Sequence record: NC_041874.1
DNA length: 49,628 bases
Reading direction: 5' to 3' (one strand)
DNA from: Escherichia phage JMPW1
Each line of letters opens with the position of its first letter. The stretch's first letter is position 1. Positions 1,055 to 48,105 of this stretch are shown piece after piece. The position numbers and the translations under genes are program-made. The notes under the pieces were generated by a model. The model was not told the DNA's origin and did no database searches. It saw nothing but the letters and a program-made list of their open reading frames with translations.

Positions 1055-1104
1055 ATAGCACTTTTTGTTAAAACCGGATCGGGATAACGCGGTATAGTTA
1101 TCCC
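1055..1104 (+). promoter_or_regulatory. Early promoter cassette: box + inverted repeat GGGATAAC/GTTATCCC enclosing -10 TATAGT
   Basis: Box ATAGCACTTTTTGTTAAAAC at 1055-1074; IR 1081-1104; -10 at 1093-1098. Confidence 0.6.
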
Positions 1105-3449: not shown

Positions 3450-3956
3450 ATGTTAAAATTAGAAGACGTAAAATTCCCGATTAAATTTATCAGCCTAGGT
3501 TGCGGTGAAATTACATTCACCAGTGAAGATAAAGGCAAGTGGGACAATGATAAAATGTCTCAGCTTAAGTTGGATTGGTTTATCAATCGGCACAATGAAG
3601 TAAATCCTGAAAACTCAGCCAAGAAGGATTACCATTACATTATTAGTGGTAGTCAGGATGCGTACGAAAAGTATGATGGTTGGAAAATTGTTCGATCAAT
3701 CTTCCACCCCGCAAAGCCAGAAATTAAACCGATGTTACAATGCGCTCAGATCGAGAACATTCCATTGAGCGCGACGCTAAAAGGAGTGCAGCTTGATGAT
3801 AAATCCTGGCTTGAAATAACCGCCACGCCGAAAACTATTGAAGTGCACGACGATATCGTCACTCTTCTATTGCATTACGGCAGCTTTAAGCACAAAGCGG
3901 TATCAGGTGAAATCAGCATTAAGCGCGGAACACTTGTGCGCTATGAGGTGAAATAA
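3450..3956 (+). CDS. hypothetical protein (168 aa)
   Basis: ORF with RBS AAGAGGAAAG. Confidence 0.55.
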   Translation: MLKLEDVKFPIKFISLGCGEITFTSEDKGKWDNDKMSQLKLDWFINRHNEVNPENSAKKDYHYIISGSQDAYEKYDGWKIVRSIFHPAKPEIKPMLQCAQIENIPLSATLKGVQLDDKSWLEITATPKTIEVHDDIVTLLLHYGSFKHKAVSGEISIKRGTLVRYEVK

Positions 3957-5446: not shown

Positions 5447-5665
5447 ATGGCTACTATCATAACAGCAGAAGATGCAGCACGCGACGCAGTGGAAGGAATG
5501 CGCCCAAATACCTCCAGAATAGCACACTACTACAAATCTGAGGTGTCGGCAGTGCAATTGGTCAACGAAATTTTAAGGCTACCACAAGTCGATTCAGCGC
5601 GCGTGGTGACGTGCTTAAAAAATTATTTTTGCATCGCTATTAAAACGAATAGCACGAATTGCTAA
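5447..5665 (+). CDS. hypothetical protein (72 aa)
   Basis: ORF; stop TAA lies inside next box. Confidence 0.3.
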   Translation: MATIITAEDAARDAVEGMRPNTSRIAHYYKSEVSAVQLVNEILRLPQVDSARVVTCLKNYFCIAIKTNSTNC

Positions 5666-5696
5666 AACCTATCAAGGGGAATGCGCTATGATTCCC
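5649..5696 (+). promoter_or_regulatory. Early promoter cassette: box + IR GGGAAT/ATTCCC enclosing -10 TATGAT
   Basis: Box 5649-5668; IR 5677-5696. Confidence 0.55.
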
Positions 5697-5722
5697 ATGC
5701 ACCAACAAACGAGGAAGCACTC

Positions 5723-6169
5723 ATGAAACACTTAATTTGCATTGAAACGCCTAACGACCAGTACACCCTGCACGGCATTGGAATGTTCAAAGGTCACTAC
5801 ATGACAGCAAGTATTCATGATTCGCGTTGCGTCAATGGCGATCTGATGATTACGTCAAAAGAAGTAACTCCGTACATTATGCAGAATCTTGGCAATAACG
5901 AATATATGGCCTACGGATGCAATGCGGTGTACAAGCATATCAAGATCAGAAAACGCGTTGTTCGCGCATTCAAGAAAATTGCAATGAAACAATGGAAGAT
6001 GAGCAAGAAAGATGCTGGACGCTGGGCGCGTAACGTTGCAGATTCATACTTCTACCGTAACGGTGAGTCCTGCCACTTCCTTATCGATGAACTTATGGAA
6101 AACTACGGCGGCGACTTCAGTCAGGGTGGCTTTGACGCTTGGGCTGACTACGAGGTCGATTACTGGTAA
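5723..6169 (+). CDS. hypothetical protein (148 aa)
   Basis: Start placed at ATG 5723 after RBS GAGGAAG; upstream ATG 5681 lies in promoter hairpin. Confidence 0.5.
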   Translation: MKHLICIETPNDQYTLHGIGMFKGHYMTASIHDSRCVNGDLMITSKEVTPYIMQNLGNNEYMAYGCNAVYKHIKIRKRVVRAFKKIAMKQWKMSKKDAGRWARNVADSYFYRNGESCHFLIDELMENYGGDFSQGGFDAWADYEVDYW

Positions 6170-30343: not shown

Positions 30344-30366
30344 GCCCCTTGCGGGGCTTTTCTTTT
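30343..30366 (+). terminator. intrinsic terminator ending late operon
   Basis: AGCCCC-TTGC-GGGGCT then TTTCTTTT. Confidence 0.65.
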
Positions 30367-30592
30367 ATATCGAGCAATCGTGAGACTTGAAGTTTTTCTC
30401 TGATACGTAGTTGAATGAGAATGGGTATCCAGCACGCAATAGCATCTCCTCTCCGCGCATCTTAGATCCAAAAACGTAAACCGAGTACTCTGCGCCTCCT
30501 GATTCATAAATTGCCGTACAAGTGCGCTCAGGCATCGATGAGCAACCAGTCAGGATGAATGCCGCAGCGATAATGGTGATTAACTTTTTCAT
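30365..30592 (-). CDS. small lipoprotein, candidate superinfection-exclusion protein (Cor/Llp-like)
   Basis: Signal peptide ending in lipobox LTGC; lone reverse-strand gene downstream of tail genes; own sigma70 promoter. Confidence 0.45.
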   Translation of the reverse strand: MKKLITIIAAAFILTGCSSMPERTCTAIYESGGAEYSVYVFGSKMRGEEMLLRAGYPFSFNYVSEKNFKSHDCSI

Positions 30593-31116
30593 TTGTATGT
30601 CCTCGTCGTTAGTGTGATTGCATTGTATGTCGCATTTACTTTTATTGCAATAGCACTATTACAATTTTTTCGTGTAACAGGTGTCTATTTTTGTAACCGG
30701 AGCGGGTGTTACAAAATCCACCCCATCCGACCGCAGAGGGATATGATAAAAACTCTATATAATATATATAGATAGATAATATTTAATTTTAGCTTTATAT
30801 ATAATTATTGTTGTGTAACAGTTGTCTATTGTGTAACTGGTGATTTGATTGATTCGTCAAATTTCTATCATATATGTTCAAAATTTAATCAATATGGATT
30901 CTACTTGTAGCTATCTCTGTATTTCTAAGAAAAAGCGGTTACAAGTATTACACAGTAGACATCACATAAAAATAGACTTAAGCCATTGATTCCGTTAATG
31001 CTGGTTGTAACTTGAGCGATATAGACACGCTATTACACACCAATTACATGTATCCGATTGACTAAACGCTGTTAATGGCTATAATGGATTCATCGTAAAC
31101 GAAGGAGATAAACGCA
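30593..31116. promoter_or_regulatory. Divergent AT-rich control region with iteron-like repeats (candidate origin or early control region)
   Basis: No convincing ORF; direct repeats GTGTAACAG(G/T)TGTCTATT at 30672-30689 and 30813-30830; CTATATAATATATATAG at 30755-30771; several TTACACA motifs. Confidence 0.5.
31058..31085 (+). promoter_or_regulatory. Sigma70-type promoter TTGACT-16 bp-TATAAT for recombination operon
   Basis: -35 31058-31063, -10 31080-31085. Confidence 0.55.
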
Positions 31117-32181
31117 ATGTTCCAAGTATTCACATCAAGTCAGCTTTCTAATGACGAGTATCATAGCAACGAAGGTTGGGCGGCAGAGTATGTAAGCGGT
31201 TCGAGCCTTGCAGAAATTTATCAGACTTGCCCGGCTAACTGGCGATTCAAGAAGAACGAGACGACTAAAGCGCTGGAGTTTGGTACTCAGTCGCACACCA
31301 ACTTTGAGAGCCGAGATCTGTTTACTGCATCGTATGCGCGTTGTCCGGCTCCGGCAGAGTTTAAAGATCTCATTACTTCGCAGGCGGCGCTGGCAGCAAA
31401 ATTAAAATCTTTTGGCCTGAAAGGTACATCCGGTAAGCAGTACCCGGACCTCATCAAAATGATGGTTGATTGTGGCGAAGACCTTAACGTTCAATACCTG
31501 ATTGAACTGATCGCAGAGGCTGAGGCGCGCGCTGAAGGAAAGAAACTCGTCGACGCTGATAAATACGACGCCTGCATGAAGATGAGAGCTATACTTGAAC
31601 AGAACCCCGATCATGAAGCGTGCATCAACAGCGAAACAGCGCAGCGTGAAATCTCAATATTCGGTGAAATATCCGGCGTCAAGGTTAAGGTTCGACTAGA
31701 TCATCTTGACTACAAAGAGAATGTACCAGGTCGTGTACTGACTGGTTATGATGAGAATGGTGATCCGGTATTTGAAGACGTAATTTTCCCGGAAGCACTG
31801 ATTATCACAGATTTCAAAACTACGATGAGCGCCAACCCGTTAGAGTTCCCGAGACTGGCATACAATCACGGTTATTACCTGAAGATGGCATTGCAGCATG
31901 ACCTGCTACGTCGCGCAATCCAGGCTGGCGCTTTTGAAGGAAACTTCCCGGAAGATATTCCGATCGTAGTTCGATTGCTTGCGCAGGAGAAAAAAGAGCC
32001 TTATATCGCACTGGCTTACCGTATGACTATGGAGCAAATCAGGATCGGTCGTAACCAGTACATTAGCGTAGTCCACACTTACAAGGCTTGCTCTGAAATG
32101 GATGTTTGGCCTGGGTACGCTGGCGACGCAAGCGAGATCGAACTTGAAACGCCATCATGGGTGCGTTACCAAAATAAGTAA
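31117..32181 (+). CDS. putative recombination exonuclease
   Basis: First gene of exo-ERF-SSB module; D..D/E.K-like ITDFKT segment. Confidence 0.5.
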   Translation: MFQVFTSSQLSNDEYHSNEGWAAEYVSGSSLAEIYQTCPANWRFKKNETTKALEFGTQSHTNFESRDLFTASYARCPAPAEFKDLITSQAALAAKLKSFGLKGTSGKQYPDLIKMMVDCGEDLNVQYLIELIAEAEARAEGKKLVDADKYDACMKMRAILEQNPDHEACINSETAQREISIFGEISGVKVKVRLDHLDYKENVPGRVLTGYDENGDPVFEDVIFPEALIITDFKTTMSANPLEFPRLAYNHGYYLKMALQHDLLRRAIQAGAFEGNFPEDIPIVVRLLAQEKKEPYIALAYRMTMEQIRIGRNQYISVVHTYKACSEMDVWPGYAGDASEIELETPSWVRYQNK

Positions 32182-36805: not shown

Positions 36806-36861
36806 ATAGCACTTTTTGCTAAAAACGTTTACTTTATGCCGTGTATTATAGCGTAAACGTT
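36806..36861 (+). promoter_or_regulatory. Promoter cassette for helicase operon: box + IR AACGTTTAC/GTAAACGTT
   Basis: Box 36806-36825; IR arms 36824-36832 and 36853-36861 enclosing TATTAT. Confidence 0.55.
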
Positions 36862-43397: not shown

Positions 43398-43798
43398 TGA
43401 AACTGAAGAAAACGTGCATTGCGATTGCAGTGGCTGTTGGCGTTATTTCCCTATCCGGTTGTTCGACGGCATCTGCCCTGAGCGGTTTAATCGGATCTAA
43501 ACCGGAAGTTACAGCACAAATCGGAGAGGAGAACACAAAGCAATTAGCAGGAGTAACCGCAAAATCCGAAGATAAGCGAGATGTTAAAGTTGAGAAGTCC
43601 AATGTAGGAAAGATTGACTCTTCCTTGAAGAAGTCAATTGAAGTGTCAACCATTAAGGCTAACACGGTTAACGCTGAAAGCATCACAGTAACAAAACCGG
43701 AAAACTGGTACGATGCTATCGTTGGCTGGATTCTCGTTTTTATCGGTCTATTGCTGGTTTATTTTTCACTTCGTAAGGACGAAAAAAAGGAGGCTTAG
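43394..43798 (+). CDS. unimolecular spanin (u-spanin)
   Basis: N-terminal lipoprotein signal with lipobox LSGC plus C-terminal TM segment; overlaps endolysin stop. Confidence 0.6.
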
Positions 43799-43812
43799 CC
43801 TCCTTTGTTATT
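43783..43812. terminator. bidirectional intrinsic terminator between convergent blocks
   Basis: GGAGGCT-T-AGCCTCC stem flanked by A7 and T-rich tracts. Confidence 0.6.
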
Positions 43813-43919
43813 TGTACCTTTTTACGTTAAGTAGTAACTCCCCATCCTGGTCGCAAAGATTATGCTCGCTTTCGTTACTGGCCCTCATTGAAGTGAGCAA
43901 CAGACTCAACAACCCTTGC

Positions 43920-44327
43920 TCAAATTCTTCTTTCGTAAGCTGGAGCCTTGCGCACAATTCGACGTTCCGATCTATCAATGTTTCTACGTTCTCCAAACAA
44001 ATCCTCATCACTCATCTCTCCAATGTGCATCATTTCCCACGTATACCGATTGTTGTAGCCATCAATACACATCAGCTTCATCATTACCGGGCGCTTAATC
44101 TTTCCCTTGCACCAGTAAAACCCATCCCTGCAATCAAGATAACCCTCAGTTACACAGCGTGAGCAAAACTCCTTAGATAGCGCGCTTGTAAATTCACGGC
44201 GAGTCATTCCTGCGGCCTTAGCAAATCGCTCACTTTCCTTGTGGGCGTATATAAATTTCGCTATGTGCTGTCGAGTGTATTTGTCGTAACCTTCGCAGAA
44301 CCTGAACAGATCTAAAAGAAGAAGCAT
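43920..44327 (-). CDS. Cys-rich hypothetical protein (135 aa), possibly zinc-binding
   Basis: Multiple Cys (CEGY, CSRC, C..C); last gene of minus-strand operon. Confidence 0.45.
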   Translation of the reverse strand: MLLLLDLFRFCEGYDKYTRQHIAKFIYAHKESERFAKAAGMTRREFTSALSKEFCSRCVTEGYLDCRDGFYWCKGKIKRPVMMKLMCIDGYNNRYTWEMMHIGEMSDEDLFGERRNIDRSERRIVRKAPAYERRI

Positions 44328-44331
44328 ATTA

Positions 44332-45900
44332 TTAACCCATCAGTCGAGGGTTGATGAAAACAATATCATCAATCCGGCAAGTGTAGTTCATCTCTTCGAG
44401 CGTGATCAGCAGGCTGTCGATTCGCTCAGATACTTTCTGTTGACCGTTGAACGGCGTAACGTTCCGGCACTTTGCAACGATGCTATGAATAGGTGCGCGG
44501 CCTTTGTTCTTCTTCGCGATCTCAGTGATAACATCAATCAGCTTACGAGATTCAGCCTCATCACCTGCATACCCGGCAGCGCTGGCAGATGACAGGTAAG
44601 TCCTGGAAAGCTCATTGAAGATCATGATCGCTTCCTGCATTGTTTCAAGGTCAATCTCACGATTAGATCGGTTCGGTGATTCACCCTCCCAATTCTTGAT
44701 CGTGTGAAGAACTGAAGCAATGCGCAAAGCGTGCTTATCGAACTTACCGAGATGACCGCGTAGCATTGAGTGAGAGTATTTGCCCCCGGCGGCGAAATCA
44801 GGCTCCATCGCCTGGCGAGCAAGGTTTAATTCACGCATAGCGTTACGGCTTACAGAGAGAACGACGTTGTCCTCCTTCATAATGTTGTGCACGAGTCTGT
44901 AATATTTGCTAACCAGTCCGCGATCTACTTCCTTATACAGCGCATCACCATTTTCATCGCAAAGAATACGAGTACCTAAAAGCGGTTCCTCTCGAACCAG
45001 GAGGAAACGCTCAGATACACCGATACCGCGCTGGCCTGCGTCCATGATACCCTTGATTGTTTCATCCTGCGCAATGACGCAGATCGAACCGACCGGGCAA
45101 AGAGATAAGTTGTTGTCCTGATTTGAACGCGCGACCTCCATATGGTTTTTATCCCACGCCTTAAGAATAAGCTCGCTGTTTGATTTCTTATCAGAACCGC
45201 CATAAGTCAGACCAAGCAATGTATTGATTGCCGTTGCTTCATCAGATATTACGGAAAAGTGGCCTTGAACAGCCGCAACTTTCGCAAGACCTTCAGGTGT
45301 AGGATCTGATACCGCGAAAACAATATCAGCCATCTTCTTGATCTTTTCTTCCAGTTTTTCCTTGTCTTCGTACAGAGCCGCCGTCGTGTTACCCTTTGGA
45401 TCGTTTTTTATTTCTTTCTCGACCTGACGTAGCTGACTGGTTAAACGTATGCGCTCCTTTTTGCGCTCTTCATTCAGTCGCTGAATCTCCGCACGCATAG
45501 GTGTAATCGCCGCTGAGTTAATAGCGGACTTACCTGTTGATGGTGGCTGGCTGATTACCATGTAAAGCGCGGTCGGCTGTTCTTCGCCGTGATATTGCAC
45601 CCAAAACTTCCCGAGCATAGCGGCTGAGATGCACCCAATGAAATGAGCGTACGCAGACGAAACAGGGAACTGTACAGACTCAGCCTTTGCCTTTGCATAT
45701 TCGAATACCAGGTTATCGCCACCTAACGAAATCAGCGGGAACTTATCGTTTCCACTGTTGATATCGATCGGATCTTGCCAAAACGAAACTGAATCCCCAT
45801 AGCTGTTTTCACGAATTGCGATCGACACCGGATTAACTCCAGTGCTATTTGCGATCTCAATAATCTGTTGGTAATTCAATTTTGGCTTAATATTAAACAT
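44332..45900 (-). CDS. large hypothetical protein with Walker A-like PPSTGKS motif (about 522 aa)
   Basis: Start moved to ATG 45900 (RBS AAGGAG); ORF-track start 45963 lies inside the box. Confidence 0.5.
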   Translation of the reverse strand: MFNIKPKLNYQQIIEIANSTGVNPVSIAIRENSYGDSVSFWQDPIDINSGNDKFPLISLGGDNLVFEYAKAKAESVQFPVSSAYAHFIGCISAAMLGKFWVQYHGEEQPTALYMVISQPPSTGKSAINSAAITPMRAEIQRLNEERKKERIRLTSQLRQVEKEIKNDPKGNTTAALYEDKEKLEEKIKKMADIVFAVSDPTPEGLAKVAAVQGHFSVISDEATAINTLLGLTYGGSDKKSNSELILKAWDKNHMEVARSNQDNNLSLCPVGSICVIAQDETIKGIMDAGQRGIGVSERFLLVREEPLLGTRILCDENGDALYKEVDRGLVSKYYRLVHNIMKEDNVVLSVSRNAMRELNLARQAMEPDFAAGGKYSHSMLRGHLGKFDKHALRIASVLHTIKNWEGESPNRSNREIDLETMQEAIMIFNELSRTYLSSASAAGYAGDEAESRKLIDVITEIAKKNKGRAPIHSIVAKCRNVTPFNGQQKVSERIDSLLITLEEMNYTCRIDDIVFINPRLMG

Positions 45901-45920
45901 CACAATAAACTCCTTAGTTG

Positions 45921-45974
45921 ACGGTGTGAATGATACACCGCCAATGGTACACGCGTTTTGCAAAAAGTGCTATT
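45921..45974 (-). promoter_or_regulatory. Promoter cassette, minus strand: box + IR CGGTGT/ACACCG
   Basis: Minus-strand box ATAGCACTTTTTGCAAAA (plus 45957-45974); hairpin plus 45921-45945. Confidence 0.5.
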
Positions 45975-45976
45975 GG

Positions 45977-46393
45977 TTATAAGTATTTGGCCTCAAAGGT
46001 TGTGCCATCTGCGATACTAAAACCGATCTCTTCGCGAAATAATGTCCAACGGCATCCGTCCTCATCAAAGATGTAACCAGCTACGCCGCCGAGAGCGCGA
46101 CCGCTTTCTACCTGGTAACGCTTTCCAACTTTGAATGATTTTTTCATCGGGTTGCGATGGTCAAGTCCGGTGCACTTTAGCGTCTTTGTTTTCAACTCGG
46201 TGAATTTCGCGAAGAAGATTTCATCAGTTCCGTGAATCTGTAATTCATCATGCTTTTCAAGTTTTAAATACTTCCCGCATTTTAGTTTTACTTCGCGAGT
46301 ACCATCATAGCGCTCACGACCTTTATACAAATTGTTTACTTCGAATCCTGTGATCTTGTCTGCGGAAGTGCATTTCAGTTTGATGGATTTCAT
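45977..46393 (-). CDS. paralog-family protein, two tandem small domains (138 aa)
   Basis: Repeats containing KCT...F.VG.RY and DEDGC; RBS CCAATCAGGAG. Confidence 0.5.
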   Translation of the reverse strand: MKSIKLKCTSADKITGFEVNNLYKGRERYDGTREVKLKCGKYLKLEKHDELQIHGTDEIFFAKFTELKTKTLKCTGLDHRNPMKKSFKVGKRYQVESGRALGGVAGYIFDEDGCRWTLFREEIGFSIADGTTFEAKYL

Positions 46394-46409
46394 GGCGCTA
46401 GCTCCTGAT

Positions 46410-48055: not shown

Positions 48056-48105
48056 GGGATGACTATACCAGCCATCCCGGATGCGCGTTTAGCAAAAAGT
48101 GCTAT
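48056..48105 (-). promoter_or_regulatory. Promoter cassette, minus strand: box + IR GGGATG/CATCCC enclosing extended -10 TGGTATAGT
   Basis: Plus-strand TTAGCAAAAAGTGCTAT 48089-48105; hairpin 48056-48078. Confidence 0.6.

Follow-up and report, generated by a model that had tools for sequence, protein, structure and literature searches.

In the genome of Escherichia phage JMPW1 (record NC_041874.1; its 49,628 nucleotides (nt) were analyzed as a whole and are called the window below), the minus strand between positions 43,920 and 45,900 carries two neighboring genes, one for a protein of 522 amino acids (aa) and one for a protein of 135 aa. Both open reading frames (ORFs) had been called at these positions in an earlier reading of the letters alone (the sequence-only reading), with which the ORF list and the sequence agree. 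The larger gene (44332-45900) starts with an ATG behind the Shine-Dalgarno sequence AAGGAG (45910-45915, minus strand) and encodes a 58-kDa protein of the DUF3987 family, which is probably the main replicative helicase of this T1-like phage and is called the helicase below. The smaller gene (43920-44327) encodes a basic protein, called the partner, with a predicted winged-helix fold. Its ATG follows the helicase stop codon after a gap of only 4 nt, and because of this gap translational coupling of the partner to the helicase gene is suggested.

The two genes had been taken for a complete operon, which left out a third one. An ORF of 66 aa (43808-44008, minus strand) overlaps the partner gene in the +1 frame, over the final ~30 codons of the latter, and its ribosome-binding site GGAGAG and ATG are embedded in the codons for the conserved partner residues IGEMSDEDLF. 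The predicted product matches phrog_9539 (E 4e-29) and has homologues in T1, SECphi27 and LL5. In the IMG/VR database, a match to its hidden Markov model (HMM) was found in 77 of 77 partner-bearing loci, and it overlaps the partner ORF in 75 of them; the ORF is unannotated in T1 and vB_Henu5_2. Since it overlaps the 3′ end of the partner gene and is conserved, the predicted operon consists of three genes, namely the helicase gene, the partner gene and the 66-aa ORF.

The operon is bounded by recognizable control elements. At its end lies a bidirectional rho-independent terminator (43786-43806, both strands) with a 9-bp GC-rich stem and T-runs on either strand, which is annotated as a terminator in T1 and ends the operon on the minus strand as well as the lysis cassette on the plus strand. 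In phage LeonhardEuler, an extra 71-aa gene (3710-3925) is situated between the spanin gene and this shared terminator, and it is absent from the window. At the other end, 57 nt upstream of the helicase ATG, there is a copy of a box, ATAGCAC-N4-TG(C/T)(T/A)AA (45957-45973, minus strand). In the form ATAGCAC-N4-TGnTAA, the window has 24 copies of it, where 0.26 would be expected by chance, and all 24 copies are oriented along transcription, for example at 1055-1071(+), 36806-36822(+), 45957-45973(-) and 48089-48105(-). In 26 of 70 related loci, the box is found 69-77 nt upstream of the helicase start. It corresponds to the 21-nt repeat reported in phage TLS, where its function was unknown (PMC11447400). 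The box holds a TAGCA/TGCTA dyad, and in the five right-arm minus-strand boxes examined a -10-like hexamer, often with the extended -10 TG, stands 22-23 nt downstream of the TTGYTA part. The copy at 45957-45973 probably marks where the helicase transcription unit begins, as an element associated with its promoter.

By megablast, region 43800-46400 matched 64 phage records. The Escherichia phages phi2013, vB_Henu5_2 and IME167 are at least 99% identical to it, with 100% identity over the region for phi2013 and vB_Henu5_2, and phage T1 is 94.6% identical. Because of these identities to T1 and close records, the window is taken as a complete, T1-like genome of the genus Tunavirus (Drexlerviridae). 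The T1 counterparts of the two larger genes are CPTT1_071 (orf9) and CPTT1_070 (orf10), the orf numbers being taken from gene order. In the curated T1 record, HHpred links CPTT1_071, a 'putative ATPase', to RavA, and CPTT1_070 is a 'HTH domain-containing protein' (HTH, helix-turn-helix). RefSeq, PHROG-based annotations and a BASEL record name the 522-aa gene 'DNA helicase' or 'putative helicase'. Thus, public annotation and literature already cover the helicase and partner genes, the family assignment and the partner's HTH character.

The 522-aa protein belongs to the AAA+ P-loop ATPases and, among them, to the DUF3987/superfamily 6 (SF6) family of MCM-like helicases. It matches Pfam DUF3987 (PF13148) with E 3e-42 and 145.6 bits, against a gathering cut-off of 27, and the match covers aa 78-432 of the protein and positions 2-355 of the 364 in the model (354 positions). 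The match to phrog_2373, 'DNA helicase', has E 1e-233, and PF13148 is carried by all 120 helicase homologues among the matches listed. Bacteriophage DUF3987 proteins have been described as divergent SF6 helicases distantly related to MCM; they have a C-terminal winged HTH, are frequently associated with AEP/DnaG primases and were proposed to be replicative helicases (Kazlauskas et al. 2016, PMC4889955). One member has been characterized biochemically: AgaPH, a PriCT-DUF3987 protein of a pAgo-carrying mobile element, is an oligomeric, ATP/dATP-dependent 5′→3′ helicase in which both Walker A and Walker B are required (PMC11724360). Within Drexlerviridae, the orthologue already appears as a putative DUF3987 helicase in the paper on the AAS23 genome (PMC8004638). 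The NTPase-like character that the sequence-only reading gave to the large protein is therefore borne out, and the homology searches led to a replication protein that does possess an NTPase fold, that of the AAA+ ATPases.

Motif conservation was assessed in 40 helicase homologues, down to 34% identity. The P-loop PPSTGKS, the one motif noticed earlier, lies at aa 119-125 within the Walker A sequence QPPSTGKS (aa 118-125; 45526-45549, minus strand). Its pattern QPPSxGKS is kept in the 40 homologues: Q118, P119, P120, S121, G123 and K124 do not vary, and position 125 holds S or T. The accompanying statement that no other motif is recognizable does not hold. A Walker B sequence, ISDE (aa 218-221; 45238-45249, minus strand), lies where a predicted beta strand (214-219) ends and has I218, S219 and E221 invariant. 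In IAQDE (aa 276-280), the same is true of I276, A277, D279 and E280. The putative arginine finger SERF (aa 296-299; 45004-45015, minus strand), with invariant S296, E297 and R298, stands just before strand 299-303, and the pair R381-G382 is also invariant.

In the structural model, the helicase is divided into a helical N-terminal domain (aa 1-95), an AAA+ core (96-345), a lid (346-443) and a C-terminal winged helix (444-522). The N-terminal domain is made of helices only, and C90 is its sole Cys, so that it holds no Cys cluster for a zinc site. The core has an MCM-type AAA+ fold, in which a predicted beta-hairpin (254-267) precedes the sensor-1 strand and a helical hairpin of ~75 residues is inserted after the P-loop. 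Among the full-length structural matches, AAA+ proteins score best; matches to ORC/Cdc6 span only 75-99 residues, namely the winged helix. The protein has no match to the DnaB families of Pfam and does not show the RecA fold of DnaB-type SF4 helicases. No match was found in NCBIfam.

The T1-type helicase can be placed among known systems accordingly. With the DUF3987 SF6 helicases it shares the full-length Pfam family, Walker A and B, the C-terminal winged helix and the predicted role as a replicative helicase; linkage of its gene to that of a primase is seen in related phages. It differs from AgaPH and its group in the short and helical N-terminus without a PriCT or AEP-primase domain, and the primase of T1-type genomes is of DnaG/T7 type and encoded ~8 kb off. 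The likeness to archaeal and eukaryotic MCM (PDB 3f8t, 4r7z, 3ja8) concerns the order and spacing of Walker A, Walker B, the beta-hairpin before sensor 1, SERF ('SRF') before the next strand and the lid Arg, a parallel drawn with the established MCM motifs and not from a computed residue-level alignment. The ~75-residue helical hairpin after Walker A sets the T1-type helicase apart from MCM, whose polarity would also be opposite if the phage enzyme moves 5′→3′ like AgaPH. The self-loading staphylococcal proteins Cch of SCCmec (PDB 5dgk) and Pri-Rep of SaPI5 (PDB 7ola) resemble it in their AAA+ MCM-like core, small mobile genome and use of a host polymerase; their winged-helix/DNA-binding domains serve origin recognition. 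A similar operon logic, in which a replicative helicase is joined by a small coupled DNA-binding cofactor and the host polymerase is borrowed, is seen in lambda O/P with DnaB, SPP1 G38P/G39P/G40P and T4 gp41/gp59. These sets differ in that there is no homology and their helicases are of the RecA-fold DnaB type, and the loader role of the T1-type partner is hypothetical.

The genome context also points to replication. The primase of the window, a 306-aa protein with a T7/P4-type zinc ribbon (Zn_Ribbon_Prim), is encoded at ~35.3-36.3 kb, ~8 kb from the helicase gene and thus not adjacent to it. The genome further encodes an SF2 helicase (ResIII + Helicase_C) with a VRR-NUC nuclease, exonuclease VIII, Erf and methylases. 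Neither a DNA polymerase nor another ring-helicase candidate was found in the genome. Since there is no such other candidate, the DUF3987 protein is the only candidate for a hexameric fork helicase. In relatives whose helicases are 35-47% identical (L004-L006, Bas78), the gene lies directly beside those for primase and SF2 helicase, which form a module with exonuclease VIII and SSB. Pseudoalteromonas phage TW1 has a co-directional module in the order small gene, DUF3987 helicase, primase, SF2 helicase, exonuclease VIII, SSB and resolvase, in which the primase gene begins 4 nt past the helicase gene.

Both genes are widespread, the helicase being present in 924 phage records and the partner in 834. 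Of 77 IMG/VR loci, 73 have a gap of 1-12 nt between the end of the helicase ORF and the start of the partner; the other four comprise a contig end, an insertion, a frameshifted helicase gene and an unverified assembly. Helicase and partner are core genes of Drexlerviridae, vertically conserved, and the partner is nearly universal within the family. The earlier placement of the operon behind a box, in an accessory right arm, is thus correct for the box and wrong for the accessory character, and the locus is an ordinary core replication operon instead of a zinc-binding or defense module.

The partner belongs to phrog_2794. Its model contains a winged helix (aa 1-75) with the H-H-H-beta-hairpin arrangement of this fold, helices at 86-111, which end in a conserved SD(E/D)(E/D)LF motif, and a basic disordered tail (113-135). 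The isoelectric point is 9.2 for the protein and 11.5 for the tail. It had been described as Cys-rich and possibly zinc-binding. The count is right (6 of 135 aa, 4.4%), but homologues of 50-76% identity have V/T/I, G/S/M, R/G/N and L/S in place of C55, C58, C66 and C73, respectively, and SECphi27 and more distant relatives such as L005 have no C87. Because the positions of the CxxC...C...C pattern vary in close homologues, a zinc site is not supported, and a zinc-finger partner was rejected for want of a conserved Cys/His ligand set. As modeled, the partner is a basic winged-helix protein and not a zinc protein.

The partner family is narrow, with 16 clusters in a word-indexed search and 20 matches among 1.84 billion representatives in an HMM search aimed at remote homologues beyond Drexlerviridae, all 20 being short phage-type proteins. 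A fold search of BFVD returned orthologues and two odd entries of phage Vc1 named 'primase' and 'helicase'. These were treated as artefacts of an older annotation, as the current Vc1 record has separate helicase and partner genes. Comparison with known regulator families gave no similarity at the sequence level. The idea that the partner is a duplicate of the winged-helix/HTH domain of the helicase itself was rejected, with an hhalign probability of 0.1%. As a beta-clamp-binding motif, SD(E/D)(E/D)LF is doubtful; it resembles QL[SD]LF, and the conserved Gln is missing.

The gene upstream of the helicase (45977-46393, minus strand) encodes a 138-aa protein of phrog_2684. It is the orthologue of a 128-aa protein of SECphi27, with 59% identity over the C-terminal 75 aa. 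Expression of the SECphi27 protein triggers the Mokosh type I defense, and phages that escaped Mokosh carry a frameshift (E7fs) in its gene; a Y109C variant was also tested by expression (bioRxiv 10.1101/2022.08.27.505566). Since escapers carry a frameshift in the orthologue, the 138-aa neighbor is probably dispensable. The Mokosh type I trigger was also considered as an orthologue of the partner, and this was rejected in favor of the upstream neighbor. In T1 (5601-6140) and JMPW2, an HNH homing-endonuclease gene is inserted between the helicase and this neighbor. The window has no HNH insertion there (~45901-45976), and the helicase-partner junction is untouched.

No convincing iterons or origin turned up within the operon or beside it. 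Elsewhere in the window, a non-coding AT-rich region of ~520 bp (30593-31116) separates a 75-aa ORF (30365-30592, minus strand) from a 354-aa ORF (31117-32181, plus strand), which are probably the cor-like and exonuclease VIII genes, judging from the order in vB_Henu5_2. A genome-wide repeat scan found TGTCTAyTGTGTAAC-like repeats in both orientations at ~30667-30689, 30808-30842, 30946-30961 and 31030-31044, on either side of a palindromic, AT-rich stretch (30741-30810). A sigma-70 promoter close to the consensus, TTGACT-17-TATAAT, is located at 31058-31086. The region may act as a regulatory hub or be a candidate origin of replication.

From family, fold, motifs, core status and synteny, we infer that the 522-aa protein most likely has helicase activity and acts at the fork. 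The sequence-only reading had offered a replication accessory factor among its options; replication is upheld, and the accessory part gives way to the role of main replicative helicase. The unit that runs from the box and promoter through the helicase, the partner and the 66-aa ORF to the terminator would be expressed early in infection. The helicase would assemble into an AAA+ ring and unwind phage DNA at the fork by ATP hydrolysis, for which K124 of Walker A, E221 of Walker B and R298 as a trans arginine finger are proposed. It would probably move 5′→3′ on the lagging strand, as AgaPH does, a direction that would fit with coupling to the primase of the phage and to host DNA polymerase III (Pol III). 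It may work together with the separately encoded T7-type zinc-ribbon primase, and it would rely on host Pol III because the phage has no DNA polymerase. Translational coupling would keep synthesis of the partner in step with that of the helicase. The partner would bind nucleic acid through its winged helix and basic tail, and either target or load the ring onto phage DNA or regulate it. Such a cofactor role, as loader, origin adaptor or regulator, is offered tentatively, at somewhat less than an even chance. We are more doubtful about a further step, in which the three-gene cassette would be a self-contained system for origin recognition and helicase loading, of a kind new for bacterial viruses. 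The partner, perhaps with the 66-aa protein, would then take the vacant place of a loader or origin adaptor in T1-like phages, analogous to the winged-helix-mediated loading of MCM by Cdt1/ORC-Cdc6. The AAA+ ring would be placed on phage DNA and coupled to the host Pol III holoenzyme, possibly via SD(E/D)(E/D)LF.

Several points weigh against these assignments. The literature on T1 and TLS treats the SF2 helicase beside the primase as the replication helicase, and the helicase role of the T1 protein is predicted from its homologues. No match to Pfam MCM (PF00493) was obtained at E ≤ 0.1, and neither phmmer nor a profile search matched a PDB chain. The OB-fold/zinc N-terminal domain of MCM is absent. 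In Walker B, D220 (45240-45242) is changed to Ala in 10 of 40 homologues, with the next Glu invariant; Ala at this position is unusual for an active AAA+ ATPase. According to old genetics, T1 reportedly depends on some of the host elongation dna genes, and the role at the fork would be weakened if dnaB is among them. As for the partner, its modeled winged-helix fold is generic and would be equally compatible with a transcription factor. It is also absent from the more distant helicase-bearing phages L004, Bas78 and TW1; therefore, it is not an obligatory part of the helicase mechanism, but a lineage-specific addition.

Other explanations assign different tasks to the same proteins. The partner could be a phage transcription factor that binds the dyad-containing box ATAGCAC-N4-TGCTAA in front of ~24 transcription units and is kept in the helicase operon for timing only. 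Every locus with the partner does have the box, and the three loci without the partner lack it, but this pattern is confounded by phylogeny since the three box-less loci are those of the most distant phages. Strict adjacency and coupling to the helicase (73/77 loci) are not expected of a global regulator, and the partner resembles no regulator family in sequence, so that we regard this explanation as unlikely. The 522-aa protein itself might be an origin-binding initiator or loader, with a role like that of ORC/Cdc6 or DnaC, which melts the origin and recruits host DnaB. Its HTH-like helical N-terminal domain and a C-terminal winged helix resembling those of ORC/Cdc6 would fit such a protein, and no origin-binding protein or loader has been recognized in Drexlerviridae (PMC8004638). 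However, the AAA+ core fits MCM far better than ORC/Cdc6, to which the protein aligns over the winged helix only; the predicted beta-hairpin before the sensor-1 strand is MCM-like; a DUF3987 homologue is a bona fide helicase (PMC11724360); and the phage has its own primase, normally the partner of a phage helicase. An initiator or loader is thus improbable.

Further from the data is a chaperone-like ATPase of the MoxR/RavA type without a direct role in DNA unwinding, which is the basis of the T1 GenBank note and which we consider very improbable. The remaining option of the sequence-only reading, a defense, anti-defense or other accessory cassette, draws on the location of the operon in the early right arm amid many small genes of unknown function and on its immediate upstream neighbor, orthologous to a known defense trigger. 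Against it, PADLOC gave no significant match (the helicase showed only a coiled-coil similarity to LmuB, at 14 bits, and the partner had no match), the GC content of the operon is the same as that of the remaining genome, both genes are present and syntenic throughout Drexlerviridae, and relatives carry the helicase gene inside a replication module. This option is close to refuted. The preferred reading remains a replicative helicase accompanied by a winged-helix protein.

T1 is a classical coliphage and a notorious contaminant in laboratories and fermentations. With orf9 as the only ring-helicase candidate, in place of the usually cited SF2 helicase, experiments on its replication are narrowed to a small target, and the constant company of orf9, a winged-helix protein and an overlapping 66-aa gene, focuses them likewise. 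The remaining interest lies in the little-studied partner, in the overlapping 66-aa gene, and in the questions of the T1 origin, helicase loading and recruitment of host Pol III.

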